Below are positions 2,919-59,039 of a stretch of DNA of 64,000 bases, piece after piece. Numbering within the stretch: position 1 is the stretch's first letter; each line of letters begins with the position of its first letter. The position numbers and the translations under genes are program-made. The stretch is from positions 1,856,001 to 1,920,000 of the forward strand of contig OZ241865.1 of NCBI GenBank assembly GCA_965203275.1. Direction: 5' to 3'. The stretch comes from Bdellovibrionales bacterium (GTDB lineage Bacteria > Bdellovibrionota > Bdellovibrionia > Bdellovibrionales > JAUICD01). Under the pieces are notes generated by a model that searched no databases, was not told the DNA's origin, and saw nothing but the letters and a program-made list of their open reading frames with translations.

Positions 2919-3790
2919 TCTAGCCGGGATCCGGGATCCGCAACCCGGCATCAGATCCTAAAAATGAAATTTTTCCTTAACATGGAGTTAAAAAACGAAG
3001 AGATCCTCCTTACTAAAAGTAAACGGACTTTTGAGGTGATGACCATTTTATCGACGGCGTGAGCCGTCGTGGTCATCACCCAAAAGTGACCAGAGGTCAG
3101 TTTACTTTTAGTGAACCAAATGTCACACCTGCAAATGGTTTAAGCAACTTCCAAAAAGTCTCCCGAACAATAAAGCTATTGTTCCCTACATTACTTTACT
3201 CAAAATAATCTAGCCCGGATCCGGGATCCGCAACCCGGCATCAGATCCTAAAAATGAAATTTTTCCTTAACATGGAGTTAAAAAACGAAGAGATCCTCCT
3301 TACTAAAAGTAAACGGACTTTTGAGGTGATGACCATTTTATCGACGGCGTGAGCCGTCGTGGTCATCACCCAAAAGTGACCAGAGGTCAGTTTACTTTTA
3401 GTGAACCAAATGTCACACCTGCAAATGGTTTAACCAACTTCCAAAAAGTCTCCCGAACAATAAAATTGCTTTTCCCTAATTTGGTTCCGTTAGTTCCTTC
3501 AAAGTAATCATTAAGTTTATCCGGGATCTGGGACCCGGGATCCGGCAGAACTTTTTCCTTAACATGGTGTTAAAAAACGAAGAGATCCTTCCTACTAAAA
3601 GTGGTCAGGCTTTCTAGGTGATGACCATTTTATCGACGGCGAAAGCCGTCGTGGTCATCGCCAGAAAGTGACCAGAGGTCAGACCACTTTTAGTGAACCA
3701 AATGTCACACCTGCAAATGGTTTAAGCAACTTCCAAAAAGTCTCCCGAACAATAAAGCTATTGTTCCCTACATTACTTTACTCAAAATAA
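2830..3790 (+). repeat. ~290-bp tandem units: gene 3' end + module B + module A
   Basis: TGT(T/C)ACACCTGCAAATGG starts at 2831, 3121, 3411 and 3703. Confidence 0.9.
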
Positions 3791-3830
3791 ATTGCTATCT
3801 TGATCCTTGGGCTACTTTTAGTGAACTAAC

Positions 3831-4050
3831 TCCCTAACCCCACCCCCCGCCCTTCGATCTGCTTTTTCATTTGTATGTTTTTTATGAGTGGAATGCGGAG
3901 TCAGGCTTCCGAAGTCCTCAACCTTCGCTTGCTTTGGGGAGCAAGCGGGTCTGCGGAAGATCTCCAGCCTGCCTCCGCATCCCACTCATAATATTCATGT
4001 TTATTTGAGATTTACGCAGAATCTAAAAGAAAATAAAAAAAACAAAAAAA
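3831..4050 (+). repeat. Module C structured repeat, ~220 nt
   Basis: Homologous to 58548-58770; partial copies at 4415, 4603, 17788 (minus) and 32907; nested inverted repeats. Confidence 0.8.
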
Positions 4051-4058
4051 CTCTTTTT

Positions 4059-4588
4059 CCTTAACATGTTGTCAAGAGACGAAGGGATCCTCCTTACTAA
4101 AAGTGGTCAAGCTTTCTAGGCGATGAGCATTTTATCGACGGCGTGAGCCGTCGTGGTCATCGCCAGAAAGTGACCAGAGGTCAGACCACTTTTAGTGAAA
4201 CAAAACAAGCTGATAAATTAGGAGCTTTTTTATACAAGTTATGTAAAAATACTTAAAGTCAAATTTGATTATCATTCCCGGGATCTGGCAATCAGGCAAC
4301 CCGGCATCAGTTCCCGGGATGCCTGCTTGCCTGATCCCGGGAATAAATATCTTGTTCCCTTAACATCATGTCAGAGAACGAATGGATCCTTCTTACTAAA
4401 AGTAAACGGATTATCCCTAACCCCACCCACCGCCCTTCGATTGTTGTTTCACTCAAAATGAACTGGCCTCTGGCCACTTTTGGGTAGCCAGCCCGACGGC
4501 TCACGCCGTCGTAAAAGGCTGACTACCTCAAAAGCTTGTTCATTTTGAGTAGAGGAGGATCCTTTTATTCCTCTACATCATGTTAAGG
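4059..4588. repeat. Module A copies (4059-4201 plus, 4446-4588 minus) with B/C fragments
   Basis: CCTTAACAT...stem-loops...TTTT(A/G)AGTGAAAC consensus. Confidence 0.85.
4201..4256 (+). pseudogene. 3' remnant of four-helix-bundle gene
   Basis: Encodes KQADKLGAFLYKLCKNT*, matching the end of 49607-49912. Confidence 0.8.
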
Positions 4589-4889
4589 AAAATTTCCTTT
4601 ATTACCTCAAGAGCAAGCTCAATTTGCGGAAGATCTTCAGTCTCCCACTGCCCCATCCTCCACCTAATTATTTTTTGTTTGAGAGTTACGCAGAATCTAA
4701 AAAAAATAAAAAAACAAAAAAAGAACATCGTATTTATCCGGGATCTGGGATCTGGGATCCGGGATCAGGCATCAGTTCCCGGGATGCCTGCTTGCCAGAT
4801 CCCGGGAATAAATATCTTGTTTCCTTAACATTTCACTTGAAATGAACCACACATTTGTTTCCCTAGAATTGAAGTGACCAGAGGTCTGT

Positions 4890-6557
4890 TCACTTGGAGT
4901 GAGAAGAATATCCTCTTTGGTAACTATGACGTGTAGCGGTGATAGTGACAACGTAAATCAAATGCAGAATCACAAAACTTGAAACATATTCTAAACCTCC
5001 ACCACCAAATCCATAAGAATGCAACCCTGCCCCTAAAACAAAATTAACTCCATACCAAGCCATCAATATCAGTGAAAAACAAATAGAACCCCACGCTAAA
5101 AATCCAAAAGGACCAAGCCATCCAGCCAGTCGCCCATGCACCACGGCAATATATCCTAACAGAGCAACCAATGCCCATACCTCTTTAGGGTCCCAGTCCC
5201 AAAAGCGTCCCCAAGAATAATCAGCCCATATTCCACCTAAAACAGTACCAGCAGCCAATAAGACCACTCCAACTTGCATGGCATAATAAGTCGCATTTGT
5301 TAAAGAGAGTACATTCGTTTGAAACAATTTAGGATTTTTTTGGGGATCTTTAAAAAAATATCCAAGCCCAATATTCGACAAAACAAAAGAAAGGAAAAAA
5401 GCAGAATACCCAAGTGTAATAGTCATCACATGTACAATAAGCCAAAGATTGCTATTTAAAACAGACATGAGCGGTTGCAGAGAAGGATCTAGAACAGTGG
5501 GAGCCATATCTGCTGTAATCAAACAAAGACAAGCTACAACACAAGCAGAGAAAACATAATAAATACGTCTTTGCCATAGCTCAAAAAGCAAAGCAAAAAA
5601 GACAGCTCCCCATGCCACCCAAATAACAGATTCGTACATATTAGAAACAGGAGGTCTCTCCATTAAATAAATTCTCAAAATAAATCCGTAAGTGTGTAAT
5701 AAAAAGGCTAACATTAAAGTTAAAAAGCCTGGATACCTTCCCCATTGCCAACCTAAAAGCACTGTCAAAAAAAATATAGCTCCTATTAGATAAAGCACCC
5801 AAGCCCATTTAAAAGGAGATAAAGAGTTATAATGTAGCTCTACATCTATTGGAGTTAGGCTAGGGTAGTGAGAAGGATTTTGTGCCTTTGCAAAAACAAT
5901 AAAATCATCGACAGCCTCTTGCAAAGAAGATACATCCTGACTGTCAATACTTTGAATAAAGGTTTTTGCCAATACTTGAAATTTTGCTTTTTCATTTTGA
6001 TTAAATTGAGAAAAGTTTTTCCATGTTTCTGTATCTTTTTGAGGGAGTAAAGCCAATGCTTGACCTGAAGTAATAGCTACAAAAGTACGCAATTGAGCTT
6101 CTAATCTTTCGACTGCTTGAAAATAATTATTGAGTTTGATTTTATTGTCTTTTTTATTTTGTAGTTCTTGAAGAATCAAACTTAATCTTGGACTAGCAGA
6201 GATCACATTGACAGAAAAATATTTTTGAGTCTCATTTAATTTAAGATTTTGCTTTAAATCTAATCTAGGAATTTCAATAATATCTACTCCAGACCAGTGT
6301 GAAGGCATTAAAATCCATGTAAAAACAACCTCAGAAGCTGCCTTTGCAGTATAATGAGATCTGCCGTAAATAAGCTGTAAAGATTCTCTGGCAAAAGTAC
6401 CAAAAGGCTTCACCCGTCCACCAGATTGAATAGGCAAGCGATTAAGTGTAGAAGCCATATCATCAGCTAAGCTTTCCGTAGAGAAAATTAAAATTGTCAA
6501 GCTCAAAAGGCCAACAAATAAAAACCTTAAAAAAGATTGGTATTGAAAATAACTCAT
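4890..6557 (-). CDS. ccsA: Cytochrome c biogenesis protein, system II
   Basis: WADYSWGRFWDWDPKEVW WWD motif, multiple TM helices, GLHSYG. Confidence 0.9.
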   Translation of the reverse strand: MSYFQYQSFLRFLFVGLLSLTILIFSTESLADDMASTLNRLPIQSGGRVKPFGTFARESLQLIYGRSHYTAKAASEVVFTWILMPSHWSGVDIIEIPRLDLKQNLKLNETQKYFSVNVISASPRLSLILQELQNKKDNKIKLNNYFQAVERLEAQLRTFVAITSGQALALLPQKDTETWKNFSQFNQNEKAKFQVLAKTFIQSIDSQDVSSLQEAVDDFIVFAKAQNPSHYPSLTPIDVELHYNSLSPFKWAWVLYLIGAIFFLTVLLGWQWGRYPGFLTLMLAFLLHTYGFILRIYLMERPPVSNMYESVIWVAWGAVFFALLFELWQRRIYYVFSACVVACLCLITADMAPTVLDPSLQPLMSVLNSNLWLIVHVMTITLGYSAFFLSFVLSNIGLGYFFKDPQKNPKLFQTNVLSLTNATYYAMQVGVVLLAAGTVLGGIWADYSWGRFWDWDPKEVWALVALLGYIAVVHGRLAGWLGPFGFLAWGSICFSLILMAWYGVNFVLGAGLHSYGFGGGGLEYVSSFVILHLIYVVTITATRHSYQRGYSSHSK

Positions 6558-6773
6558 TTTATAAGACCTTGTTTATTAGAGATGTATTTTAAGAAAGTTT
6601 TTATAATATATCAAATAAAAAATTAAGATGTAACTTGTTTAATTTGAATAAAAATAATGTTGTTGTGCTATAATGTTGATATGAAGTATGACGACAGACT
6701 AAGTTCACATTGAAACTTGAATCTTATATTATAAAATTTCTGAAGGATAAAAAAGTATGAACTTGCAAAGTAT

Positions 6774-8459
6774 CTAGTTTTCAAATATGCGAGAAATATC
6801 ATTGAAAAAAGCCAACGCCATTAAACCTAAAATCACAATCAAGCCAATCATTTGAGCAATTTCCATCTTTCTCATACTCAAAGGAGCTCCTCTAAGAGCC
6901 TCAATGGTGAAGAAAACCAAATGCCCACCATCTAAAATAGGAATGGGCAACATATTAATAATGAAAAGATTAATAGAGATAATAGCCATAATCTTAAGAA
7001 AATAGCTTAAACCCATTTGAAAGGTTCGGCTAGCTACTTGACCAATCATAATAGGTCCACCAATAGACCGGTGTGATACACGAGCTTGCAAAAGCCTTAA
7101 AAACCCAAGACAAGTTAATTTCGTCCAAAAAACAGCCTTTGTCACACCATCTTGCAACGCTAAAATAGGATTTAAAGTACGTATAATTGTAAAGTCTGTC
7201 GGTGTTTCTACTATGTGATTATAAATGCCAATGGCGTATTTGGATTCCCTACCTCCTTGATTATTTGTTTGCTCTACTAATATAGGAGTGAGTTGCACGT
7301 TTTGAATCTCTCCTTTTCTTACAACCTCTATATTTAAGTGTTGTTGTTCAGGGGTATAGCTGTATATTTTGTTCAATAAGCTTGCTCGATCGGTTAATCT
7401 CTCACCATCAATGGCTTGAATCTTATCGCCAGATAAAAGTCCAGCCTGTTCCGCAGGGCTATCTTCAGTAAAATGAGATATAAACAAATCCGGTATTTCA
7501 AATCCTAATGTTTCAGGAGTGAGTTCTCCCACAAGATCATCTGGAATTTCAATGGAAGCTGTATGTTGAGAAGATTCTGTATTTTGGGATAACTTCGTAG
7601 GGTACCTTGTGTATTTAATCTCTAAAAGTTTTTCTTGAGCAAAATCGTTTTGTAGAAGAGCTACGACCTCATACCATTTTTTAACAGGGGTGTTATTTAT
7701 GGAGTTGATTTCATCAAAAGTCATCATCCCCTCCTTAGCTGCTAATGAGTATGGTCTTGAAATACCTACTTGAGAGCTTCTTGCCATAATTCCTAAACCT
7801 TCAATAGAACCTATTTTTTCTTCTGTACTTAAAATATTAGGATTAGCTATCAGAGCCGTTGTGGTCTGTAACGAAATATTTTCAGCATGGCGATCAATAC
7901 CAAAGGTGATCTGTTGCGTTTGAGGAAGTTCTATGTGCGTTTTCACTTCTTGCCATGTTTTGACAGGGGTACCATTAATGGATGTAATAATATCACCAGA
8001 TCGGAAACCTTCCTGCCATGCTATTGACTGTGTCTTGATATCACCTACAATGGGTTTGATCATTTGTTCGCCAATGAGAGCTATAATAAAGAATACAAAA
8101 ATAGCAAAAAAGAAATTCATTAAAGGTCCAGCAAGTACAACAGCAATCCTCTGACCGACTGGCTTATGCAAAAAAGCACCTTCCCTTTGATCAAGAGGTA
8201 CTTCCATAGAAGGATCGTCTCCGAACATTTTTACATAACCACCAAGTGGAATGATAGAAATACAATAAGTTGTCTCGCCCCGCTTGAATTGAAAGATTTT
8301 CTTTCCAAAACCAAGACTGAAAGTTTCGACCCTTACATTATAAAATTTAGCTACGAGAAAATGTCCTGCTTCATGGACAAAAATCAAAATGCCCAAGAGA
8401 ATAGTCATAGGAACAAGAAAAGATAACCCTTGTTGAACAAAGTTAAATAACAAATCCAT
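6774..8459 (-). CDS. rseP: RIP metalloprotease RseP with PDZ domains
   Basis: HEAGH zinc motif, NMLPIPILDGG, PDZ-like segments. Confidence 0.93.
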   Translation of the reverse strand: MDLLFNFVQQGLSFLVPMTILLGILIFVHEAGHFLVAKFYNVRVETFSLGFGKKIFQFKRGETTYCISIIPLGGYVKMFGDDPSMEVPLDQREGAFLHKPVGQRIAVVLAGPLMNFFFAIFVFFIIALIGEQMIKPIVGDIKTQSIAWQEGFRSGDIITSINGTPVKTWQEVKTHIELPQTQQITFGIDRHAENISLQTTTALIANPNILSTEEKIGSIEGLGIMARSSQVGISRPYSLAAKEGMMTFDEINSINNTPVKKWYEVVALLQNDFAQEKLLEIKYTRYPTKLSQNTESSQHTASIEIPDDLVGELTPETLGFEIPDLFISHFTEDSPAEQAGLLSGDKIQAIDGERLTDRASLLNKIYSYTPEQQHLNIEVVRKGEIQNVQLTPILVEQTNNQGGRESKYAIGIYNHIVETPTDFTIIRTLNPILALQDGVTKAVFWTKLTCLGFLRLLQARVSHRSIGGPIMIGQVASRTFQMGLSYFLKIMAIISINLFIINMLPIPILDGGHLVFFTIEALRGAPLSMRKMEIAQMIGLIVILGLMALAFFNDISRIFEN

Positions 8460-8477
8460 ATCATTTCCTTTATTTGG

Positions 8478-9619
8478 TCCTTTTATTATCTCAATTTGGG
8501 CCTTTTATTATCTAAATTCGTTGATCTTCGTCTACCCGTACGTACCTCTTTTAGAAATACGTGAGTTGTGTCCCTCAAAATTTCCCTTCCTTGAATATTC
8601 TAATCTAATTTCGTATATTCACCAGGTCAAGCTCATTTCAGAGAATAGGAAGGTCAATTTTGAGGTGATCGGCTAGAAATTCACTACTAAAATTTATGTT
8701 TACCTCAATTTCTTTGTACATATTATTTTCACTTCCTTATTTGGTCCTAATTATTATCTAAATTCGTTGATCTTCGTCGTTTCACTAAAAAATAAACCAG
8801 CCTCTGGCTACTTTTGGGTAGCCAGCCCGACGGCTACCGCCGTCGATCAAAGGCTGGCTACCTCAAAAGTCCGTTTACTTTTAGTAGAGAGGATCTCTTC
8901 GTCTCTTAACACCATGTTAAGGAAAAAGTTCCTTCTATCAATTTTTCCCTTCCTTGAATATTCTAATCTAATTTCGTATATTCACCAGGTCAAGCTCATT
9001 TCAGAGAATAGGAAGGTCAATTTTGAGGTGATCGGCTAGAGATTCACTACTAAAATTTGTGTTTACCTCAATTTCTTTGTACATATTTTGTTTCCCTCAA
9101 AATTTCCCTTCCTTGAATATTCTAATTTAATTTCGTATATTCACCAGGTCAAGCTCATTTCAGAGAATAGGAAGGTCAATTTTGAGGTGATCGGCTAGAG
9201 ATTCACTACTAAAATTTGTGTTTACCTCAATTTCTTTGTACATATTTTGTTTCCCTCAAAATTTCCCTTCCTTGAATATTCTAATTTAATTTCGTATATT
9301 CACCAGGTCAAGCTCATTTCAGAGAATAGGAAGGTCAATTTTGAGGTGATCGGCTAGAGATTCACTACTAAAATTTGTGTTTACCTCAATTTCTTTGTAC
9401 ATATTTTGTTTCCCTCAAAATTTCCCTTCCTTGAATATTCTAATCTAATTTCGTATATTCACCAGGTCAAGCTCATTTCAGAGAATAGGAAGGTCAATTT
9501 TGAGGTGATCGGCTAGAAATTCACTACTAAAATTTATGTTTACCTCAATTTCTTTGTACATATTATTTTCACTTCCTTATTTGGTCCTAATTATTATCTA
9601 AATTCGTTGATCTTCGTCG
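8478..9619 (+). repeat. Module D element and 159-bp tandem array
   Basis: CCCTCAAAATTTCCCTTCC at 8572, 9094, 9253 and 9412 (variant ~8935); homologues at 35659, 39440 and 57003. Confidence 0.85.
8780..8922 (-). repeat. Module A copy
   Basis: Consensus match. Confidence 0.85.
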
Positions 9620-10060
9620 TTTCACTAAAAAATAAACCAGCCTCTGGCTGTTTTTGGGCAATCAGCCCGACGGCTCTCGCCGTCGATCAAAGGCTGATTG
9701 CCTCAAAAATCTGTTTATTTTTAGTAGAAAGGATCCTCTCGTCTCTTAACTACATGTTAAGGAAAAAGCTCCTTCTGATGTTTGCTCTGACAGCTTACGC
9801 TATCTAAAAAGAGCAATGCCTTTGTTTCACTCAAAATAAATCATGCCTCTGGCATGTTTTCTGGCAGTTAGCCCGACGGCTACCGCCGTCGATCAAAGGC
9901 TAACTGCCTAGAAAATCCATTTATTTTGAGTAGGGAGGATCTCCTCATTTTTTAACACCATGTTAAGGAAACAAGCTATTCGCTTCATCCCTGCCTGTCT
10001 GCCGGATCCCAGATCCCAGATCCCAGATCCCGGATCCCAGATTGACATGATGTTAAGGAA
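9620..10060 (-). repeat. Two module A copies (9620-9762, 9824-9968) plus heptamer tract
   Basis: Consensus match with variant stems; GATCCCA/GATCCCG repeats at 10001-10042. Confidence 0.85.
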
Positions 10061-10081
10061 AAAGTTCCTTCTTACACTCGT

Positions 10082-11221: not shown

Positions 11222-11558
11222 GCTTCACTAAAAGTGGTCTGGCCTCTGGCCACTTTCTGGTTGCCAGCCGAAGGCTATTCGCCTTCTCAAATGCTGGCAA
11301 CCTAGAAAGCCTGACCACTTTTAGTAGAAAGGATCCTTTCCTCTTTTAACACCATGTTAAGGAAAATTTCTTTTATTACCTCAAGAGCAAGCGGGTTTAC
11401 AAATGAAACTCTTTTTCCTTAACATGATGTTAAGAAACGAAGGGATCCTCCTACTAAAAGTAAACGGACTTTTGAGGTAGCCAGCCTTTGATCGACGGCG
11501 AAAGCCGTCGGGCTGGCTACCCAAAAGTGACCAGAGGTCAGTTTACTTTTAGTGAAAC
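11222..11558. repeat. Inverted pair of module A copies (11222-11362 minus, 11417-11558 plus)
   Basis: Consensus match; the plus copy ends just before the tRNA-Trp CCA end. Confidence 0.85.
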
Positions 11559-17164: not shown

Positions 17165-18190
17165 AAGTGGTCTATTTCACTCAAAGTGAACTGACCTCTG
17201 GTCACTTTCTGGTTGCCAGCCGAAGGCTACCGCCTTCTCAAATGCTGGCAACCTAGAAAGCCTGTTCACTTTGAGTAAGAAGGATCTCTTCATTTCTTTA
17301 CTCCATGTTAAGGAAAAAGTTCCTTCTTACGCCTTGAATGTTGCCTGCAATGGCTTTCGCCATTGGCAAAATGGTCATCACCTAAAAAATCCGCTCATTT
17401 TGAGTAGGGAGGATCCTCTCGTCTCTTCACTACATGTTAAGGAAACAAGCTATCCGCTTCATCCCTGCCTGACTGCCGGATCCCAGATCCCGGATCCCGG
17501 AAAAGATCAAATTTGACTTTAAGTATTTTTACACAGTTTATATAAAAAAGCTCCTAATTTATCTGCTTGTTTTGCTAATTCCATGTAGCCACTAAATTCC
17601 AAGTCTAGTATTGCCTGAACTGTTTTTCACTAAAAGTAAACTAGCCTCTGGCCACTTTTGGATGATGACCACGACGACTGTCGTCGTCGATAAAATGGTC
17701 ATCACCTCAAAAATCCGTTTACTTTTAGTAGGGAGGATCCCTTCGTCTCTTGACCACATGTTAAGGAAAAAGAGTTTCATTTGTAAGCCCGCTTGCTCCC
17801 CAAAGCAAGCGAAGGTTGAGGACTTCGGAAGCCTGCACCCGCATTCCACTCATAAAAAACATACAAATGAAGAAGCAGAATCGAAGGGTGGCGGGTGGGG
17901 TTAGGGAGTTCGTTGGTTCACTCAAAGTGAACTGACCTCTGGTCACTTTTAGTAGAGAGAATCTCCTCGTCTCTTAACTACATGTTAAGGAAAAAAAAGT
18001 TCTTTCTGATGCCGGGTTCCCGGATCACGGATCCCGGGATCCGGGATCTGATGGCGGGTTGCCAGATTCCAGATCCCGGGATCCGGGATCTGATGGCGGG
18101 TTGCCAGATTCCAGATCCCGGGATCCGGGATCTGATGGCGGGTTGCCAGATTCCAGATCCCGGATAAACAAAATGTTAGGGAAACAAGAT
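17155..18190 (-). repeat. Mosaic of module A copies (17175, 17624, partials), module C fragment and module B 42-bp tandem
   Basis: Consensus matches; GATCCCGGGATCCGGGATCTGATGGCGGGTTGCCAGATTCCA x3. Confidence 0.85.
17519..17620 (-). pseudogene. 3' remnant of four-helix-bundle gene
   Basis: Reverse strand encodes VQAILDLEFSGYMELAKQADKLGAFLYKLCKNT*. Confidence 0.85.
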
Positions 18191-19997
18191 GTTTATTTTC
18201 TTTTTTCCATAAAGCACCACTACCGCGTCCTTGAGCTTCATATCCATTTTCCTTTAGTCTGTTGCGAATTGTCATATCCGAAATGTTATCAAACTCTGTT
18301 ATTCCAGCGTCCTTTATTTGCTTGAAAGTTAAACCTTCCGGATGATCTGCAAAGAGAGCTTCTAACTTGCGACTAATTATTGTCTTTTCTTCATCTTTTT
18401 TTGTTTGATGGCCTTGCTGATGCCATAAAGCCCACGGACCGTGTCCTTGGACTTCATATCCATTTTCCTTTAGTCTTCTTTTAATTGTCATATCTGAAAT
18501 GTTACTAAACTCTGTTATTCCAGCGTCCTTTATTTGCTTGAAAGTTAAACCTTCCGGATGATTTGCAAAGAGATCTTCTAACTTGCGACTAATTATTGCT
18601 TTTTCTTCATCTTTTTTTGTTTGATGGCCTTGCTGATGATTCCATAAAGCACCTGCACGTCCTTGAGCTTCATATCCATTTTCCTTTAGTCTTCTATTAA
18701 TTGTCATATCTGAAATGTTAGCAAACTCTGATATTCCAGCGTCCTTTATCTGCTTGAAAGTTAAACCTTCCGGATGATTTGCAAAGAGATCTTCTAGCTT
18801 ACGAGTAATTATTGCCTTTTTTTCATCTTGTCTTGTTTGATGATTCCATAAAGCACCCGGACCGAGTCCTTGAGCTTCATATCCATTTTCCTTTAGTCTG
18901 TTGTAAATTATATAATCTGAAATGTTAGCAAACTCTGGTATTCCAGCCTTTATCTGCTTGAAAGTTAAACCTTCCGGATGATTTGCAAAGAGATCTTCTA
19001 GCTTACGAGTAATTATTGCCTTTTTTTCATCTTGTCTTGTTTGATGATTCCATAAAGCACCCGGACCGAGTCCTTGAGCTTCATATCCATTTTCCTTTAG
19101 TCTGTTGCGAATTGTCCCATCCGAAATGTTATCAAACTCTGTTATTCCAGCGTCCTTTATTTGCTTGAAAGTTAAACCTTCCGGATGATCTGCAAAGAGA
19201 GTTTCTAGTTTAAGAGTAATTATTTCTTTTTCTTCTTGAGATTGAAGGTAATGGTTTCTCTTTGATATGCTTAATAAAGTTTGTCTGGCTTGTTCAATCT
19301 TATGAAACAAATCTTCTTTTATTTTTATGGGAGGTTTATTTAAAAGCTCTGATAAAAAATAGCTCATACCAGTATCCACACTAAAAGTTGCTAAAAAGAA
19401 ATGTTCTGGAAATATAGAGATAAAAAAAGTTTTATTATCTGAATTATTCCGCATATATCTAATCTCTTCCTCTTTCTCTTGAACAGCTCTTTCAAAGAAT
19501 GCAATTGCACTTTCATCATACATAAGGTTAGGTACAGAAGATATATCCCCTAAATGAAGGATGAGCAGATCATTATACTTAAATAAGAGGGAGTCACGAG
19601 GCTGAATATCTAACTGACTTAAAAGAAATTCTTGAACTTCTCTTAAAATATTTAGTTCTTTCAAAATAAGACCTAAGGCATTAAAAGTAGGAGTGTCATC
19701 TATAATATCTGTATCATTCAAGTAATTGAGTTTTTCGTTTGAAGACTCTACTCTTGTCAAAGTTGCCAGAAGAATATGTTTTGTATTCACTGTTTGAGAC
19801 CCAGAAACATAAGCTATTAACGAAGCTCGAGATAACATATATCGAGAGTTGGGAGCAAGCTCTCTTAAAGTTCTCTCGTCAAGTTGTTGTTTGTCCATCA
19901 TAAGGCTTTCGGCACAAGCCCATAGAGAACCGCTGGCAGTCAGCAAAATAGTAAAAAATAAGCATAAAAGATATTTTTTCATCATAAGGAAAGCCAT
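17985..19997 (-). CDS. Signal-peptide protein with Clp-N-like region and five ~65-aa winged-helix-like repeats; C-terminus reads into repeats
   Basis: LFA(D/N)HPEGLTFKQIK...ISDxxIxxRLKENGY x5; leader resembles the ankyrin-gene leaders. Confidence 0.7.
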   Translation of the reverse strand: MAFLMMKKYLLCLFFTILLTASGSLWACAESLMMDKQQLDERTLRELAPNSRYMLSRASLIAYVSGSQTVNTKHILLATLTRVESSNEKLNYLNDTDIIDDTPTFNALGLILKELNILREVQEFLLSQLDIQPRDSLLFKYNDLLILHLGDISSVPNLMYDESAIAFFERAVQEKEEEIRYMRNNSDNKTFFISIFPEHFFLATFSVDTGMSYFLSELLNKPPIKIKEDLFHKIEQARQTLLSISKRNHYLQSQEEKEIITLKLETLFADHPEGLTFKQIKDAGITEFDNISDGTIRNRLKENGYEAQGLGPGALWNHQTRQDEKKAIITRKLEDLFANHPEGLTFKQIKAGIPEFANISDYIIYNRLKENGYEAQGLGPGALWNHQTRQDEKKAIITRKLEDLFANHPEGLTFKQIKDAGISEFANISDMTINRRLKENGYEAQGRAGALWNHQQGHQTKKDEEKAIISRKLEDLFANHPEGLTFKQIKDAGITEFSNISDMTIKRRLKENGYEVQGHGPWALWHQQGHQTKKDEEKTIISRKLEALFADHPEGLTFKQIKDAGITEFDNISDMTIRNRLKENGYEAQGRGSGALWKKENKHLVSLTFCLSGIWNLATRHQIPDPGIWNLATRHQIPDPGIWNLATRHQIPDPGIRDPGTRHQKELFFP

Positions 19998-20031: not shown

Positions 20032-20680
20032 TTTTCACTCAAAATGCATCATGCCTCTGGTTCACTAAAAGTAAACCAACCTCTGGTTGCTTTTGGATAG
20101 CCAGCCCGACGACTTTCGTCGTCGATCAAAGGCTGGCTACCTCAAAAGTCCGTTTACTTTTAGTAGGGAGGATCCTCTCGTCTCTTTACACGATGTTAAG
20201 GGTTTGTCTCACTAAAAGTAAACTGACCTCTGGTCACTTTTGGGTAGCCAGCCCGACGGCTACCGCCGTCGATCAAAGGCTGGCAACCTCAAAAGTCCGT
20301 TTACTTTTAGTAAAGAGGATCCCTTCGTTTTTTTAACACGATGTTAGGGAAAAAGTTCAGTTTTAGGACCTGATGCCGGGTTGCCGGATCCCAGATCCCG
20401 GATAAACATCATGTTAAGGAAAAAGTTCCTTTATCGCAAACTGCTTGCTCTTGAGGTAATAAAAGAAATTTTCCTTAACATGATGTAAAAGAATAAAAGG
20501 ATCCTCCCCTACTCAAAATGAGTGGATTTTTTAGGTGTTGCCTATTTTGTCAAAGGCGAAAGCCTTTGCAGGCAACACCAAAAAACACACCAGAGGTGTG
20601 GCTCATTTTGAGTGAAATGTTAAGGAAAAAGTTCAGTTTTAGGACCTGATGCCGGGTTGCCGGATCCCAGATCCCGGGTA
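20032..20680. repeat. Three module A copies (20060 minus, 20205 minus, 20473 plus) with module B
   Basis: Consensus matches. Confidence 0.85.
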
Positions 20681-24030: not shown

Positions 24031-24058
24031 GGTAACATGTTGCGGAGGATGAGATAAC

Positions 24059-32906: not shown

Positions 32907-33040
32907 TTATGAGTGGGAGGCGGGGGCAGGCTGAAAGAGTTGGCTCACTAAAAGTAGCCAGAGGCTAGACCACTTTTAGTGAAAGAGAGGTGTGGTTCAT
33001 TTCAAGTGCAAAAGACGGCATGATTTATTTTGAGTGAAAT
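32907..33040. repeat. Degenerate module C/A fragments
   Basis: TAGCCAGAGGCTAGACCACTTTTAGTGAAA and related pieces. Confidence 0.65.
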
Positions 33041-35040: not shown

Positions 35041-35655
35041 CCGGGATCCGGGATCCGGGATCCGGGATCAGAAGGGAACTTTTTCCTTAACATGGGGTTA
35101 AAAGACGAAGATATCCTCCTTACTAAAAGTAAACGGACTTTTGAGACATTGCTCTTTTTAGACAGCGTAAGCTGTCAGAGCAATGTCCAAAAGTGACCAG
35201 AGGTCAGTTTACTTTTAGTGAGACAAACCCTTAACATGGGGTTAAAAGACGAAGATATCCTCCCTACTAAAAGTAAACGGACTTTTGAGACATTGCTCTT
35301 TTTAGACAGCGTAAGCTGTCAGAGCAATGTCCAAAAGTGACCAGAGGTCAGTTTACTTTTAGTGAGACAAACCCTTAACATGGAGTTAAAAGACGAAGAT
35401 ATCCTCCTTACTAAAAGTAAACGGACTTTTGAGACATTGCTCTTTTTAGACAGCGTAAGCTGTCAGAGCAATGTCCAAAAGTGACCAGAGGTCAGTTTAC
35501 TTTTAGTGAGACAAACCCTTAACATGTAGTTAAGAGATGAGGAGATCCTCCCTACTAAAAGTAAACGGACTTTTGAGACATTGCTCTTTTTAGACAGCGT
35601 AAGCTGTCAGAGCAATGTCCAAAAGCAACCAGAGGTTGGTTTACTTTTAGTGAAA
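35041..35655 (+). repeat. Heptamer tract followed by four head-to-tail module A copies, period 144
   Basis: CCTTAACATG at 35085, 35229, 35373 and 35517. Confidence 0.92.
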
Positions 35656-39140: not shown

Positions 39141-39690
39141 CCGGGATCTTAGATCCGGCAACCCGGCATCAGATCCCGGGATGCCTGCTTGCTGGATCCC
39201 GGGAGCGAATGTCTTGTTTCCTTAACATCATATTTATCTGGGATCTGGGATCTGGCAACCCGGCATCAAAAGGAAAAGGTGTAAGAAGGAACTGTTTCCT
39301 TAACATTGTGTAAAAAAACGAAGGGATCCTCTCTACTAAAAGTGGTCAAGCTTTCTAGGTTGCCAGCATTTGAGAAGGCGGTAGCCTTCGGCTGGCAACC
39401 AGAAAGTGACCAGAGGTCAGACCACTTTTAGTGAAAAAAATTAGATAATAAAAGGTCCATAATGATATATACAACAAAGAGTATATATATGGTGTTATGT
39501 AGTGAATCTCTAGCCGATCTCCTCAAAGTTGACCTTCCATTTCTCTGAAATAGGTTTGATCTGGTGGATTTACGAAGTGAGATAATAATAGATTCAAGGA
39601 AGGGAAACTTTGAGGGAATCAATGCACGTATCTCTGAAGAAGGTACGTATGGGTAACCGAAGATCATCGAAGTTAGATAATAAAAGGTCC
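39141..39690. repeat. Module B tracts, module A (39297-39435 plus) and module D (39440-39690)
   Basis: Consensus matches. Confidence 0.85.
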
Positions 39691-44701: not shown

Positions 44702-44965
44702 TTATTTTTCTTGTTGGTTTTTAGCTAACATCTCAAATAATCGATCAAGTCTTTGGTTAGTTTGATCGAGTCTTTGGTTAGTTCGATCAATCTTTTCTCC
44801 AAGTTCTCTTATTTGAGTAGGGATATGGTTATTTACTTGATTTTCAATATGATCTAGCCGATTATAGATAGGGCTAACTAAAAATTGAAGTATAACGATC
44901 AAACTAGCAAGACCACCTAAAACACCTATTATTAAACCTATATTCTTTTGAAAAAAATCTTTCAT
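44702..44965 (-). CDS. TM-anchored coiled-coil protein (MKDFFQKN family)
   Basis: Paralogue of 50743 and 51166; GAGG RBS. Confidence 0.75.
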   Translation of the reverse strand: MKDFFQKNIGLIIGVLGGLASLIVILQFLVSPIYNRLDHIENQVNNHIPTQIRELGEKIDRTNQRLDQTNQRLDRLFEMLAKNQQEK

Positions 44966-45140
44966 AATTTACCTCTTTTCTCTTACTATACCACTAAAAG
45001 ACAAGAAAGAAAACAAAAATCCTTTTGATGCACAATATTATATTATTGTTTTGAAACACTTAGAAATAGCAAATTATTCTATATTTTGATTAAATTGAAA
45101 TAATTAAAGTCACAAAATCAAAATACAATAACCAATAAAT

Positions 45141-45965: not shown

Positions 45966-46688
45966 TCAATGTATATTATGACGATCAGCAAGCCTCTTGA
46001 TTGATGTTCGATGCCATATTCCACGAACACGTGTTTCAAATCCTAGCCTGTTAAATTCACAAGCTATATTTTCCCATGAAAATTTATTATTCCTTAATGT
46101 CTTTAAAGCCTCAACATGCTTTTGATCGGCTTGGCTTATCTTTGTGGGTTTATCCACTTTAGGGATTGCTTTAACTTTTTGAGGCTTTACCTTGTTATCT
46201 TTATCCTTTTTTTGTTTGTCTCGGTATTTCTCAAGACCAGCTTTAACCTTAGGATTATTTGCTCCAAGCTCCACTCCACGACCTTTTAACTCTGCCAAAG
46301 CCCGCTTTGTCCTCTTAGATATGGTCTCTCTTTCATATTGAACAATCGCTCCTAGCAAGTGTATTGTCAGTGGTGTTGCATCCGGCATATCACAACATAC
46401 AAAATCTATCTTAGATTTGGATAGGGACGTTATAAAATGCAAATCCCGACTTAATCGACTTAATGTAGCCACGATCAAAGTAGCCTTGTGTTGTTTGCAA
46501 TATTCCAAAGCCAATTGCAATTGTGGTCGATTCTTATCAGACTTGCCACTTTCCTTTTCTGTGAATGACTTGACGGGAGGCCATTTATCCTTAAGATAGG
46601 CTTTAACCATTGTCTCTTGAGTTTGTAAGCCAATAGTTTGCCTTGATGTTGATACTCTATAATAAGCTACATATTGTTTGATATTCAA
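45966..46688 (-). CDS. Serine recombinase (resolvase/invertase family)
   Basis: YYRVST catalytic Ser, ESGK..RPQL, LSRLSR, ERETISKRTK, C-terminal DNA-binding region. Confidence 0.92.
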   Translation of the reverse strand: MNIKQYVAYYRVSTSRQTIGLQTQETMVKAYLKDKWPPVKSFTEKESGKSDKNRPQLQLALEYCKQHKATLIVATLSRLSRDLHFITSLSKSKIDFVCCDMPDATPLTIHLLGAIVQYERETISKRTKRALAELKGRGVELGANNPKVKAGLEKYRDKQKKDKDNKVKPQKVKAIPKVDKPTKISQADQKHVEALKTLRNNKFSWENIACEFNRLGFETRVRGIWHRTSIKRLADRHNIH

Positions 46689-48964: not shown

Positions 48965-49216
48965 TTGTACCTCTAATTTTTGTTTTTGATTTTATAACAG
49001 CATATTTCTGAAAAGTCAAGCCTAGGTTATAAAAAACTAAAAAATGAGAAATTTCTAAAGTCGACCTAAAAAAGTCCAACAATTACAAACACTTAGCAAT
49101 GTAACTTTTATACAAAAGTCACAATATTAAGTGACTGAAATCACTGGAATTCCAATTTTTAAACCTAATTCCTCTCATTTTTTAGAAAAATATACAGAGA
49201 AACAAATACCTTGTTT

Positions 49217-49359
49217 CCTTAACATGGTGTTAAGAGACGAAGAGATCCTTTCTACTAAAAGTAAACGGACTTTTGAGATAGCCAGCCTTTGATCGACGGC
49301 GTGAGCCGTCGGGCTGGCTATCCAAAAGTAGCCAGAGGCTAGTTTACTTTTAGTGAAAC
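49217..49359 (+). repeat. Module A copy
   Basis: Consensus match. Confidence 0.88.
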
Positions 49360-49606
49360 AAACTAGCTGAAATCACTGGATTTCTAATTTTCAAATACCT
49401 TTTTCCCCATCTTTTAGAAAAAATACAGAAATTACGAATATTTTATCCGGGATCTGGGATCCGGCAGTCGGGCAACCCGGCATCAAAAAGAAATTTTTCC
49501 TTAACATCGTGTTTATCCGGGATCAGAGTATTGGTTGTAATGAATTTTTGCATCTAAAAAATTTCCTCCCAAGCCCTGGCGGGTTTTCAGAAAGGAGGAA
49601 ATTTTT

Positions 49607-49912
49607 ATGACGATGCAAAAATTCAAAACTTATCAATTAGCTACTGAATTTTATTGTAATTCTAAAAAATTACATCTGAAAGAACCTCATAGAAGTCAAT
49701 TTCGAAGGGCTGTTTCAAGTATCGTGCTTAACTTAGCTGAAGGGTCCGCTAAACCTACAGCAAAAGATCGTAGGAAATTTTACTATATTAGCCTTGGCTC
49801 TCTAAGAGAGGTTCAGGCAATATTGGATCTAGAATTTGTTGGTTGTATGGAATTAGCAAAACAAGCGGATAAATTAGGAGCTTATTTATACAAATTATGT
49901 AAAAATACTTGA
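49607..49912 (+). CDS. Four-helix-bundle protein (23S rRNA IVP / Avd-like fold)
   Basis: SQFRRAVSSIVLNLAEGS...FYYISLGSLREV; AGGAGG RBS; flanked by heptamer tracts. Confidence 0.9.
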   Translation: MTMQKFKTYQLATEFYCNSKKLHLKEPHRSQFRRAVSSIVLNLAEGSAKPTAKDRRKFYYISLGSLREVQAILDLEFVGCMELAKQADKLGAYLYKLCKNT

Positions 49913-49989
49913 AGTCAAATTTGACTTTTCCCGGGATCTGGGATCGGGCAACCCGGCAGACAGGCAAGAATGAAGCGAATATCTTGTTT

Positions 49990-50128
49990 CCTTAACATGG
50001 AGTTAAGAGACGATGAGATCCTTCCTACTAAAAGTAAACGGACTTTTGAGACATTGCTCTTTTTAGACAGCGATAGCTGTCAGAGCAATGCCCAAAAGCA
50101 ACCAGAGGTTGGTTTACTTTTAGTGAAA
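49990..50128 (+). repeat. Module A copy
   Basis: Consensus match. Confidence 0.88.
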
Positions 50129-50521
50129 TTGTTTCAGGGGTTGCAAGGAGTGAATAATCAAGATATAATATTATCAGCAGTTCAATATCATTTATCTTGT
50201 AGAAATCCAAAGATAGATTTGGGGTTTTTCAATAGATGTTTGAAATTAGCTTCAGATAAGGATAGTAAATTAGTCAAAGTAGAAGGAGGTAAGATGGGTG
50301 CATATATACCAATGGTTAAAAGAGGTTTATTAGAAGGTTTAGCAAAAGGTCGGCAGGAAGGTATCGCTGAGGGTCGGCAAGAAGGTATGGAAAAGGGTAT
50401 GGAAAAGGGTATGGAATTAGTTGCACACAATATGTTAAAAGAGAATATGAATATTGCTTTAATCTCTCAGGTGACAGGTTTATCTCAAGATCATATTTTA
50501 AAGCTAAAAAGTAAAACCTGA
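50129..50521 (+). pseudogene. C-terminal remnant of an Rpn/PD-(D/E)XK transposase-like gene
   Basis: EGRQEGMEKG repeats, VAHNMLK...ISQVTGLS; 5' part replaced by module A. Confidence 0.7.
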
Positions 50522-51153
50522 GTTTGACAGCCTGAAAAAATAAAGTTGTGGGATTTCAATAGGTTATAAGCGTAATAAGATTTTGTGCCACTAGGATGTG
50601 AGCTTTTTTTATTGTAAGCTTTTTAATTTAGGGGAAATTATTAATTTATTCATCTGAAATTTCATTTTTCCCCTTATTTTTAGGCTTTTATATTTTACAT
50701 TATTTTTTATCATTGTGAGAGAATAAGCTAAAAAAGTGGGTTTTATTTTTCTTGTTGATTTTTAGCTAACATCTCAAATAATCGATCAAGTCTTTGGTTA
50801 GTTTGATCAATCTTTTGTCCAAGTCTTTGGTTCATTTGATCAAGTCTTTGGTTGGTCTGATCAATCTTTTGTTCAAGTCTTCTTATTTGAGTAGGGATAT
50901 GGTTATTTACTTGAGTTTCAATATGGTCTAGCCGGTTATAGATAGGGCTAACTAAAAATTGAAGTATAACGATCAAGCTAGCAAGACCACCTAAAACACC
51001 TATTATTAAACCTACATTCTTTTGAAAAAAGTCTTTCATAATTTACCTCTTTTCTTTTACTACACCATTAAACCCTGAGTTTGACAGCCTGCAAAAATAA
51101 AGCTTAGTAAATTCAGTAGGTTATGGGCTTAATAAGATTTTGTATATGCCACT
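50517..51153 (-). mobile_element. Two orphan IS1634 right ends (50517-50595, 51074-51153)
   Basis: CCTGAGTTTGACAGCCTG.AAAAATAAAG...TGCCACTA. Confidence 0.75.
50743..51039 (-). CDS. TM-anchored coiled-coil protein (MKDFFQKN family)
   Basis: Paralogue with DQTNQRL repeats. Confidence 0.75.
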   Translation of the reverse strand: MKDFFQKNVGLIIGVLGGLASLIVILQFLVSPIYNRLDHIETQVNNHIPTQIRRLEQKIDQTNQRLDQMNQRLGQKIDQTNQRLDRLFEMLAKNQQEK

Positions 51154-51165
51154 ATGAAGTGGGTT

Positions 51166-51528
51166 TTATTTTTCTTGTTGGTTTTTAGCTAACATCTCAA
51201 ATAATCGATCAAGCCTCTGGTTGGTCTGATCAAGTCTTTGGTTGGTTTGATCAATTTTTTCTCCAAATCCTTGGTTGATCTGATCAATCTTTTGTCCAAG
51301 TCTTTGGTTGGTCTGATCAATCTTTTCTCCAAGTCTTTGATTGGTCTGATCAATCTTTTGTTCAAGTCTTCTTATTTGAGTAGGGATATGGTTATTTACT
51401 TGATTTTCAATATGGTTTAGCCGGTTATAGATAGGGCTAACTAAAAATTGAAGTATAACGATTAAGCTAGCAAGACCACCTAAAACACCTATTATTAAAC
51501 CTATATTCTTTTGAAAAAAGTCTTTCAT
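51166..51528 (-). CDS. TM-anchored coiled-coil protein (MKDFFQKN family)
   Basis: Paralogue with more KIDQTNQRLG repeats. Confidence 0.75.
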   Translation of the reverse strand: MKDFFQKNIGLIIGVLGGLASLIVILQFLVSPIYNRLNHIENQVNNHIPTQIRRLEQKIDQTNQRLGEKIDQTNQRLGQKIDQINQGFGEKIDQTNQRLDQTNQRLDRLFEMLAKNQQEK

Positions 51529-51668
51529 AATCTACCTCTTTTCTTTTACTATACCATTAAAAGACAAGAAAGAAAACAAAAATCCTTTTGATGCACAGTA
51601 TTATATTATTGTTTTGAAACACTTAGAAATAGCAAATTATTCTATATTTTGACTAAATTTGAAGTCTT

Positions 51669-52070: not shown

Positions 52071-52084
52071 GTAAATCCTCTTAT

Positions 52085-55712: not shown

Positions 55713-56073
55713 AATCAACACACCTCATTTTTAGTTTTCAATACTCATTTTTACAAGTCCAGTCAAGGTCATCTAACAACAATCACTTATGACATACAGG
55801 TCAAGGCTAATTTTGATATTCATTTTCAAATGGATGTATTTTTTTAAAAAGCTTCATTCTAAAAAAGGGCAAAAATTTTGTTTGTAGTTATAAAAGTGTC
55901 TTTTCTTACAATCTTCATTAAGACCACGTTTTAAAGTGTGACCATCTAGGAAACAAAACCTTAAGTTTATTATGGGATGATATTCAAGCTGTGTCTCTCC
56001 CACTTTGGTTTACTTCAAAGTGCAACACAGCTTTAAGAAAGTCAAAAAAATACGTAGCTTTATAGAATTGGTA

Positions 56074-56715: not shown

Positions 56716-56776
56716 TTGTACCTTCATTTGAATTTTTGATTTTATAACAACATATATCTAAAAAGTCAAGCCGTCT

Positions 56777-57140
56777 TTTTCACTAAAAATAAACCAGCCT
56801 CTGGCATGTTTTTGGACAATCAGCCCGACGGCTCTCGCCGTCGATCAAAGGCTGATTGCCTCAAAAATCCGTTTATTTTTAGTAAGGAGGATCTCCTCTT
56901 TTCTTAACACCATGTTAAGGAAAAAATTCTTTCATCTGCTGTGCTGGCAACCTAGAAAGCTTGACCACTTTTAGTGAAACAGCCCACTTTTAGTGAAACA
57001 AAGGCTTGACCTAGTGGATTTGCGAAGTTAGAGATAGAGCATTCAAGAAAAGGAAAATTTGAGCAAAACAATGCACGTATCTCTGAAAAAAATGTACAAA
57101 TAGATGAAGATAAACAAAATTAGATAATAGAAGGTCCGAT
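56777..57140. repeat. Module A (56777-56920 minus), fragments and partial module D
   Basis: Consensus matches. Confidence 0.8.
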
Positions 57141-57170
57141 GAATGAAACAAAAACACATAAGGAGCAATT

Positions 57171-58412
57171 ATGTCTAAAAAATTCAAACATCTTAAAAAG
57201 AACAAAAAAGGTTTTAAGCGTGATGTCTTGCATTTATTTGACCATCTATTTTATGAAGTTTACAGCAAAGAACAATATATTTTAGATTTGTTTCGTTTAG
57301 TTTTAACTTCAGAGGAATTTGAACTTTTTGATTGGAGTACCTTGCAATCCAGAGTGACTGTTTTTATAGATAAGGCTTTTAGAGAGCGTCGGGCTGATGT
57401 GATTTTTTCTGTTAAACTGAAAACAGGGCAGATGGTTGAGATTATCTTCCTTTTTGAGCATAAGTCTTATAACGATCCTAGTGTTTTTATTCAGATGCTC
57501 AATTACCAAGCTAATATTTATGAGAAGGACAGCAGGCAGGGTAAAAATAAAGTGCCTTCTTTGGTAATTCCTGTATTGGTTTATTCTGGTAAGGAGCCTT
57601 GGAAGATGCCATTGAGTTTCCATGGATATTTGAATTTTCCATCACTAAAAGTGCAGGCAGCTTTTAAAGAGAATATTCTCAATTACAAATATCGCTTGCT
57701 CAATCTACATGATTTAGGTATAGAGATATTAAAATCTAAGAGCTTGATTTTTGTTTCACTCAAAATAAACTGGCTTCTAGCCACTTTTGGGTAGCCAGCC
57801 CGACGGCTACCGCCGTCGATCAAAGGCTGGCTACCTCAAAAGCTTGTTTATTTTGAGTAGAGAAGGATCCTTTTATTCCTTTACACCATGTTAAGGAAAA
57901 AGTCCTTTTATTGCCTTAAGAGCAAGTAGCTTGCAAATGAAACATTTTTGCCTTAACATCATGTTAAGAGACGAAGGGATCCTTCCTACTAAAAGTGGTC
58001 AATCTTTCTAGGTTGCCAGCATTTGAGAAGGCGAAAGCCTTCGGCTGGCAACCAGAAAGTAGCCAGAGGCTAGACCACTTTTAGTGAAAGAGACAAGATT
58101 TATGATCCTAGTTTTACCTTGGAAGTATTGCAAAAAATAGAAGAAAAACACATATCAAAGGAGGAAAGAACCATGCCACCATTACAGATCACAAGAGAAA
58201 GACTATTACAAGAAGGGTTGCAAAAAGGTTTGCAAGAAGGGTTACAAAAAGGGCGACAGGAAGGGCGACAGGAAGGGCGACAGGAAGGAGAACAAAGTAT
58301 CATCTTAAAAATGCTTAAAAATAAGATGGATATTTCGACTATTGCAAAAATCACAGAGTCCACAGAGAACAAAATACGAGAAATACAGAAAAAACTAAAC
58401 AGCTTAAGCTAA
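57171..58412 (+). pseudogene. Rpn-family (PD-(D/E)XK) putative transposase interrupted by an inverted module A pair at 57752-58090
   Basis: RADVIFSV...FLFEHKSY...IPVLVYSG N-terminal part; EGRQEG tail in ORF 58119. Confidence 0.85.
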
Positions 58413-58475
58413 ATATTATTATTTGTTGAACAATCTGCAAAATCTTTCACTTAAAGCTAAATTTGATTTTTTCAA

Positions 58476-59039
58476 GGATCTGGGATCCGGCAACCCGGCA
58501 GACAGGAGGTGAAATAAAAACCTGGTGTTAAAAGACAAAAGGATGATCCCTAACCCCACCCGCCACCCTTCGATTCTGCTTTTCCATTTTGTTTTTACTT
58601 GAGGATGAGGGCAGAGGGAGCCTTCCGAAGTCCTCAATTGAGCTTGCTTTTAAGGAGCAAGCTCAATTTGCGGAAGATCTCCAGTCTCCCTCTGCCCCCA
58701 TCCTCCTCTTAATTACTTTTTTTTGAGAGTTACGCAGAATCTAAAAGAAAATAAAAAAACAAAAAGAAACTCTTTTTCCTTAACATGGAGTTAAGAGACG
58801 AGAAGATCCTCCCCTACTCAAAATGAGCGGATTTTTTAGGTGTTGCCTATTTTGTCAAAGGCGAAAGCCTTTGCAGGCAACATCAAAAAACACACCAGAG
58901 GTGTGGCTCATTTTGAGTGAAACAACTAACTCCTTACTAAAAGTGGTCAAGCTTTCTAGGTTGCCAGCATTTGAGAAGGCGAATAGCCTTCGGCTGGCAA
59001 CCAGAAAGTAGCCAGAGGCTAGACCACTTTTAGTGAAAA
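58476..59039 (+). repeat. Module B, module C (58548-58770), module A (58778-58923) and headless A (58931-59037)
   Basis: Consensus matches. Confidence 0.85.

Follow-up and report, generated by a model that had tools for sequence, protein, structure and literature searches.

Within a 64,000-nucleotide stretch of a Bdellovibrionales genome (assembly GCA_965203275.1, contig OZ241865.1, positions 1,856,001 to 1,920,000; hereafter the window), we found a repeated, folded DNA element that is a real new family of a known kind, the high-copy selfish structured repeat. Its mobile unit comprises a leader, a conserved head, a three-way junction, and a tail; its loops are strand specific, and its insertions are lineage specific. 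Terminal inverted repeats are absent, as are a target duplication of constant length and any conserved target word. The 3′ joint lies close to the element (0–8 nt past the core) and the 5′ joint is looser (~11–23 nt before the head). Insertion favors the element itself, a repeat that we call heptamer arms, and other hairpin repeats, and the tails of clusters face outward. We read this as a non-autonomous, selfish, polar element of a single genus (g1) whose folded plus strand would serve as a single-stranded DNA (ssDNA) template and be inserted by primer or template switching, and we put the probability of this reading at roughly one half. Its intermediate, the enzymes behind it, and the direction in which synthesis runs are what we infer.

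The genome holding the window (G000) is one 2.57-Mb contig with 35% G+C and a marker-based completeness of 90%, its close protein relatives carry the label Bdellovibrionales, and it was compared with G001, from the same genus, and with the relatives G002, G003, and G004. Copies were located in the window and genome using nhmmer. A first-pass annotation of the window had listed about 26 near-complete copies; all 15 on the plus strand and all 11 on the minus strand were recovered, none more than a few bases from its listed position, along with 5 partial copies. The unit ends given there proved too short, as a variable 5′ leader of ~11–23 nt and an A-rich 3′ tail of up to 7–8 nt enlarge the unit from ~142 nt to ~165 nt. 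The anatomy of a type copy, on the plus strand, is as follows.

49192..49213, plus strand: variable purine-rich 5′ leader (limits approximate; 11–23 nt in most copies)
49214..49253, plus strand: conserved head, with a TTTCC-TAACAT motif, a weak non-covarying hairpin, and a purine/pyrimidine linker
49254..49354, plus strand: three-way junction
49254-49266/49342-49354, plus strand: outer stem of the three-way junction
49299-49306, plus strand: GCGNNAGC mini-hairpin of the long arm, which also has a bulged A and a T-rich internal loop
49329-49341, plus strand: side hairpin
49355..49363, plus strand: GA and a 7-nt A-rich 3′ tail, followed by a duplicate of the upstream target repeat

Across G000, there were 762 near-full matches (732 without overlaps, 648 distinct), and the element and its fragments made up 6.1% of the DNA. 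Only 6 of 732 copies lay mostly within long open reading frames (ORFs), making the element extragenic. An identical partner existed for 124 of 640 copies, and private substitutions of 0.2–0.4% indicate that copies are young. In metagenomic data, two sponge runs from one study shared about one-fifth of the words in a 10-kb stretch, and one of the two yielded long pieces along the window. Short-read contigs from run X3 piled up on element-bearing bins (1,400–7,900, compared with ~55–60 in single-copy bins), and the repeats are therefore not an assembly artefact.

The fold was strong and covarying. A single copy gave z-scores of −11.6 as DNA and −9.3 as RNA, and none of 200 shuffles folded equally well. 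The three nested helices proposed at first pass do covary: among 62 distinct copies drawn from three genomes, double-sided changes were seen in 31 of 45 pairs, with 484 double-sided cells against 153 in shuffles and 11–50 in slid controls. Stem alleles were counted in 563 distinct G000 copies plus 60 copies from G001 loci, loci L225–L236, and three G004 contigs. G000 held 10 distinct perfectly paired alleles of the outer stem, 16 of the arm, and 8 of the side hairpin, to which relatives added 8, 13, and 6 unseen in G000. The stems thus form a small set of discrete alleles in which several bases change at once, and these are shuffled between helices, with 29 of 64 outer stem by arm combinations occurring. 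Outer stems were perfect in 484 of 609 copies, compared with 13% expected under random arm pairing, and 74 of the 609 had two or more mismatches. Some variants in relatives carry an additional hairpin at the junction or side arm with the fold kept (L003:1716-1800, L009:2329-2733, and L032:2785-2946). The head behaved differently from the first-pass description. The TTAAC/GTTAA pair is a sequence motif rather than a hairpin: it had no double-sided change, and 30 of 62 copies broke one of its pairs. A hairpin at the GATCCT linker was rejected as unsupported, its pairing covariation being non-significant (3.91 versus 3.86 ± 0.03; shuffle maximum 3.93), and pairing of head with tail (5.43 of 8 versus 5.34 shuffled; variable position without covariation, P 0.73) is at most a weak possibility. 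That the structure is under selection, as was first suggested, is likely rather than proven: the few alleles are shuffled, and template-switch correction of palindromes could pair changes without selection.

The loops distinguish the two strands. The GCGNNAGC mini-hairpin was on the plus strand in 449 of the 563 distinct G000 copies and on the minus strand in none, and 48 further copies had a five-base loop. Tetraloops were of GNYA type, as opposed to the RNA-type GNRA, in 179 of 473 cases; wobbles were few and favored the plus strand (248 G.T versus 136 A.C cells, terminal pair excluded). PMC13037366 describes the GCGNNAGC motif as exceptionally stable as DNA, far weaker as RNA, and present at phage ssDNA priming sites. 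Together, the plus-strand loops, GNYA tetraloops, and rare wobbles point to folded ssDNA without demonstrating it. The suggestion of a strand-specific, ssDNA-like element is therefore supported, and ssDNA over RNA is the intermediate that we infer.

We then examined the joints. An empty-type context was available for 672 of 964 3′ ends. Past the conserved GTGA, the non-target tail came to ≤7 nt in 198 of the 272 junction types (2–7 nt in 176), and tail-target identity climbed toward the 3′ joint. At the other end, the purine-rich leader was 11–23 nt long in 306 of 508 types, ≤10 nt in 48, and ≥24 nt in 154 (mixed with paralog mismatch). A single leader class was seen beside many different left contexts, with many alleles, and ahead of many unrelated 3′ targets, so leader and tail appear to travel with the element and to be partly overwritten at each joint. 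No target consensus or conserved target word was present at 71 near-blunt junctions. Paralogous empty alleles were found for 30 of 434 clusters; in the clean filled/empty pairs among them, 0, 2, 11, 20, 30, or 45 nt were lost, or 2–3 and 67–80 nt duplicated, with no duplication of fixed length. Duplications of unique DNA were few: ~90 nt in the window (2831-2918), and 112 nt and at least 139 nt elsewhere. Long target duplication as a rule was rejected, at 37 of 244 copies compared with 35 of 278 on the 5′ side (plus-strand copies only), and gene transduction by the 3′ end had little support, with shared duplicate boundaries at an included 3′ end in 12 of 1005 cases.

Filled and empty sites inside G000 and across genomes bear out the initial description of the element as mobile. 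Between genomes, the site after recG is empty in G001 and filled on contig C1, and G000 is empty between rpsQ and rplN; element sites differ between species, and none is shared. Contigs from four sequencing runs contained no clean empty site. Many copies are nested inside older copies, with a few to tens of nucleotides replaced. The scars fit neither DDE transposases, Y1 HUH transposases, nor site-specific recombinases.

The arrangement of copies is polar. Of 95 mixed clusters, 79 were tail-out and 4 tail-in; 131 of 331 clusters were single copies. A heptamer module lay within 70 nt of 164 heads and 58 tails (of 640). For 59 solitary copies, the 3′ end was the closer to a gene (median 106 versus 340 nt, P 0.02), and 7 of 36 tRNA/tmRNA genes had an element 3′ end 5–11 nt from the mature end (4 by script and 3 read from flanks, after two false tRNA calls were dropped). 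Among element ends facing a stop codon, 64 of 328 were within 20 nt. Element 3′ ends may therefore also delete adjoining DNA until selection halts them, though a preference for stem bases would look alike. Solitary-strand clusters showed little preference with respect to gene orientation (59/50/54/72). Besides the heptamer arms, at least three further structured repeat families occur in the window (3820-4040, 8566-9600, and 49080-49450), all frequent landing sites; one has a relative beside a G001 group II intron.

The element was matched in 3 of 61 genomes by BLAST and 3 of 151 with the covariance model. All 12 matches in G004 lay on three small contigs (C1, C4, and C11; loci L025–L027). C11 carries a second rplB, 96% identical to that of G001, where the other G004 rplB is 69% identical, and C1 and C4 match G001 DNA at 85–95% and 74–87%; these contigs are thus foreign, mis-binned from a genus-g1 organism, and the element is seen only in genus-g1 DNA. 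Phages and plasmids gave no match, a viral pattern scan found none, a metagenome pattern scan returned 115 matches of which none scored with the profile (best E 0.19), and a genome pattern scan found at least 12 loci in one record. The family had gone unrecognized at first pass, and no described family matched it here: Rfam returned only two tRNAs at gathering score and nothing near threshold for the element, and searches of openly accessible papers, supplements aside, listed no published description.

No mobilizing enzyme, whether for cutting or for copying, was found for the element in searches of G000 that stopped short of a full proteome scan. The first-pass annotation had suggested looking beside copies for a RAYT/HUH, integrase, or reverse transcriptase (RT) gene, and none was found adjoining the element. 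Y1 transposases (PF01797) were absent from G000, the one genus-g1 genome covered by that search, RAYTs (NF047646) were absent from G000 and G001 and matched only in G002, which itself has no element, and an HUH-motif scan of G000 ORFs gave no partner. Neither Y2 (PF04986) nor Rep_trans (PF02486) was detected in any of the five genomes, but the Y2 controls were silent. The IS110 domain PF02371 was absent from G000 and G001, and the sole TnpB-domain match was a 1365-aa Cas12-like protein. Neither Pfam nor tblastn with three RTs as queries detected an RT in G000; in G001, a retron RT and an intact group II intron RT are present, and no element copy lay inside two group II intron loci examined. 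At one G001 locus (L023), a copy abuts a tRNA 3′ end, and ~450 nt upstream of that copy is a gene of 603 aa for a fused retron St85-type effector-RT. Several other candidates were rejected as partners: GIY-YIG (one 612–653-aa, UvrC-sized ORF per genome), DUF559 (a broken fragment in G000), tyrosine recombinases (two per g1 genome, none with a copy in its 3.5-kb locus), and Cas1 (also in G003, which has no element). The 31 genes with copies on both sides, read by eye, included none of note.

These data suggest a scheme for amplification by primer or template switching on folded ssDNA. A folded copy with a short 3′ overhang would be released or exposed, and a broken chromosomal 3′ end would anneal to the overhang through 0–5 nt of microhomology, allowing a polymerase to copy through the element. 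The new strand would then rejoin the chromosome via microhomology, or via homology with the carried 5′ flank; rejoining upstream of the first joint would give target loss, and rejoining downstream would give duplication. Recombination among copies would swap whole stems, with only correctly paired copies propagating or arms being corrected from each other. The simplest guess for the enzymes would be a host polymerase plus a nuclease that is nonspecific or guided by structure; for Rpn proteins, PMC5350276 proposes primer-template switching that starts from 3′ ends made by a nuclease.

Several observations weigh against this scheme. In addition to the missing enzyme, no intermediate, be it ssDNA, a circle, or RNA, was observed. 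Folding energies, for RNA and DNA alike, hardly separate the two strands, and private mutations are strand symmetric (C>T 36 versus G>A 30) and so give no ssDNA signature. No replichore or replication-strand bias was detected (P 0.17–0.99), in a genome without clear GC skew. More than 7 non-target nucleotides occur in 74 of 272 junction types, and microhomology is overestimated, since the empty allele with the closest match was picked and many junctions were inherited inside composites. The empty alleles are paralogs of 68–99% identity rather than true pre-insertion sites, and later deletion or conversion may have reshaped their joints. Finally, G003 has 16 Rpn genes and no element. A more ambitious version is one we consider less likely than not: the element could represent a new class, in which a folded single strand with a mini-hairpin and short 3′ overhang is pasted into breaks by target-primed copying, SINE-like but without terminal repeats, HUH chemistry, or a fixed target. 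It would be run by an undescribed enzyme or by host repair alone, and its outward 3′ ends would trim neighboring DNA to the nearest essential sequence, such as tRNA ends and stop codons.

The best placed of the alternatives, itself unlikely, is a retroelement resembling short interspersed elements (SINEs), in which 3′ exonucleases would trim read-through transcripts to a few nucleotides past the closing stem and a group II intron-type RT, acting in trans, would reverse transcribe them at chromosomal breaks. Target-primed reverse transcription, as in SINEs and elements without long terminal repeats (non-LTR), leaves scars like those observed: a near 3′ end bearing an A-rich tail, a 5′ extent that varies, microhomology, and target loss or duplication of variable size. 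G001 has the group II and retron RTs noted above, and group II-type RTs join ends via microhomology according to 10.1101/2022.03.14.484287. Against this, G000 has no detected RT even though many of its copies have identical partners, the loops are of DNA type with rare wobbles, private mutations show no A-specific excess of mutagenesis, the two group II intron loci are free of copies, and shared boundaries at the 3′ end are few.

The next alternative, improbable as well, is a repetitive extragenic palindromic (REP) or REPIN-type element whose mobility would depend on a RAYT, a Y1 HUH transposase that has diverged too far to be detected, has been lost, or is supplied in trans. As PMC3116915, PMC3733652, and PMC6006769 describe them, REP/BIME/REPIN systems with RAYTs share with our element a high copy number, extragenic and lineage-restricted distribution, a non-coding nature, ssDNA-type hairpins, and clusters with inverted pairs, the last as in REPINs (PMC3116915); class 3 TnpA-Y1 enzymes go with atypical high-copy hairpins (PMC6006769). 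The hairpins in those accounts measure 20–65 nt, whereas the element is ~165 nt with a three-way junction, imprecise joints, and no RAYT or PF01797 match in the searches above. REPs have a GTAG/GTGG guide 0–2 nt 5′ of a short hairpin; the folded strand here has CTAC or variants before the stem instead of an invariant tetranucleotide, and the opposite strand has a variable GTAG, GTAA, or GGAG before the linker without covariation. Moreover, the REPIN replicative unit is an inverted doublet, whereas single copies of the element insert alone and are common, and tail-out pairs are enriched yet a minority. Insertions are imprecise, and the near-blunt junctions share no target word.

A third possibility, which we consider very unlikely, is that the element is a cis-acting end or parasite of the four-helix-bundle/heptamer cassette or of Rpn-family nucleases. 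Large ankyrin-containing, coiled-coil, and Rpn families are found in G000, and G000 and G001 both show expansion of the four-helix-bundle and Rpn families. For 10 of 11 listed four-helix-bundle ORFs in G000, the first feature downstream is an element copy or head on the same strand, and a same-strand copy lies upstream of 27 of 59 Rpn-family ORFs compared with 104 of 1414 other genes. As the element breaks these genes, the association may only mirror tolerated landing sites. Four-helix-bundle matches number 14 in G000, 19 in G001, and 19 in G004; those of G004 are on contigs without the element, and the loci read there hold heptamer arms only. Near-identical bundle genes sit between heptamer arms at window 49607-49912 and at least 10 other loci, the arms being direct at those G000 loci that were read; in G004 most are inverted or direct. 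The bundle gene tracks the heptamer arms, and bundle and Rpn genes also occur in relatives without the element. In G001, copy orientation beside the bundle gene varies. Co-occurrence of the element with PF05635 and PF12784 across the five genomes was rejected because the G004 copies sit on foreign contigs. With the element-free Rpn genes of G003, these controls show that neither family is sufficient for element presence, and a role for them is possible. At window 49970-50521 and 57171-58412, and at many other loci, Rpn genes are split or cut to C-terminal remnants right behind the element 3′ end, whose GTG opens a reading frame.

Less probable again is that the element has no dedicated mobility and is a palindrome spread by generic duplication and gene conversion, its paired changes arising from template-switch hairpin correction and not from selection. 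The few discrete, shuffled multi-base alleles, the mismatched outer stems, and the existence of tandem arrays would agree with this, but it sits poorly with the invariant loops, bulge, and head, the pair of end distances that stays consistent over hundreds of unrelated sites, insertions that entered unrelated targets cleanly, and the 79:4 polarity. A host-beneficial structured RNA or regulatory element (mRNA stabilizer, terminator, or small RNA) could be read into the stable RNA fold and its tolerance within ribosomal protein operons, but host benefit as a primary role is largely refuted by lineage-specific sites unshared between species, by copies that truncate each other and genes, by the slight gene-orientation preference, and by the lack of an Rfam family.

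Bacterial MITEs (miniature transposable elements with inverted repeats; ERIC, Nezha, Chunjie, and Correia) resemble the element in size, non-autonomy, stable fold, and filled/empty sites (PMC3184786), whereas the element has no terminal inverted repeats or fixed target duplication and its ends do not resemble the IS1634-type end that the window contains. Rickettsia palindromic elements (RPE), CIR, and bcr (same source), with CGTC REPs (PMC3733652), are similar as structured repeats of 100–150 nt in host-associated bacteria with no known transposase; unlike RPE-type repeats, compared here via Rfam only, the element is almost never in intact ORFs, has polar ends with leader and tail, and nests heavily in itself. 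The 71 junctions do not display the precise insertion 3′ of a conserved tetra- or pentanucleotide expected of an IS200/IS605 derivative, and an IS110 bridge-RNA element would come with a precise core and the PF02371 recombinase gene absent from G000 and G001. Integron attC sites have R boxes at the outer ends and one site per gene cassette; in the element, the AAC/GTT boxes lie 5 nt apart in the head, and no cassette geometry was seen. For IS91/helitron rolling-circle elements, which have a conserved ori/target word, the joints showed no target word, alongside the Y2 search with silent controls. On the features tested, the element therefore does not belong to REP/REPIN, MITE, IS200/IS605, IS110, attC, or any Rfam family. 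It works like a REP/REPIN or RPE-type selfish repeat, with scars that resemble target-primed insertion.

The remaining copies and associated features of the window are listed below.

2831..2918, plus strand: ~90-nt 3′ end of a 472-aa gene, recurring after each of three copies as a long target duplication
2973..3115, plus strand: full copy; opens a series of three units, each made of a gene 3′ end, a heptamer arm, and the element
3263..3405, plus strand: full copy
3555..3697, plus strand: full copy with other stem alleles
4057..4199, plus strand: full copy; tail joins the 3′ part of a four-helix-bundle gene
4357..4412, plus strand: 5′ fragment (model 2-57)
4448..4590, minus strand: full copy
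8781..8924, minus strand: full copy, in place of 45 nt of another repeat
9621..9764, minus strand: full copy
9826..9970, minus strand: full copy
11224..11364, minus strand: full copy, left partner of a tail-out pair
11415..11556, plus strand: full copy; 3′ end 7 nt from the tRNA-Trp 3′ end
17176..17315, minus strand: full copy, nested behind the 5′ fragment 17344-17444
17626..17768, minus strand: full copy
17917..17992, minus strand: deleted copy (model 1-50 and 111-143)
20061..20351, minus strand: two full copies, head to tail (20209-20351, 20061-20201)
20471..20616, plus strand: full copy; tail fused to an inverted head remnant
32939..32983, plus strand: 3′ fragment
35083..35654, plus strand: four full copies, head to tail, period 144
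39296..39435, plus strand: full copy
49607..49912, plus strand: four-helix-bundle gene (PF05635/TIGR02436) between heptamer arms; frequent landing site, outside the element
49988..50127, plus strand: full copy, joined to what is left of the C-terminal part of an Rpn-family gene
56779..56922, minus strand: full copy
57755..58088: tail-out pair, one copy minus (57755-57898) and one plus (57950-58088), separating the N- from the C-terminal part of an Rpn (PF04754) gene
58776..59037, plus strand: full copy, then a 3′ fragment (58930-59037)

Other mobile and repeated features share this genome. IS1634 is present, as are IS256-like elements, the latter label being an interpretive reading. IS1634-type ends (window 45141, 50519, and 51075) flank repeated cassettes with small coiled-coil genes (44769-45068 and 50843-51631), which suggests MITE-like gene cassettes of the resident IS1634. 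The window also encodes a 670-aa protein with about five tandem winged-helix-like repeats of 65–72 aa and weak HTH Pfam matches (17985-19997), and an AAA ATPase and HNH pair that resembles a defence module, after which come a decarboxylase-like gene and a gene without assigned function (20856-25360). A 105-aa HNH gene (28929-29246; three same-length copies in the genome) and a serine recombinase (45966-46688; six copies) were also noted. Over the whole of G000, GC3 analysis revealed no replichore-scale GC skew and no gene-strand bias, consistent with heavy recent rearrangement.

The element bears on how high-copy structured repeats without a transposase, such as RPE and CGTC REPs, multiply. 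It offers ~960 3′ joints, empty alleles in many paralogs, and stem swaps made by nature in dozens, so that its end rules are readable and testable. Occupying 6% of the DNA in a host-associated bacterium, it disrupts genes for Rpn and four-helix-bundle proteins and may be a driver of genome scrambling. Should the target-primed model hold, bacteria would have a way of amplifying DNA that is SINE-like and does without terminal repeats.

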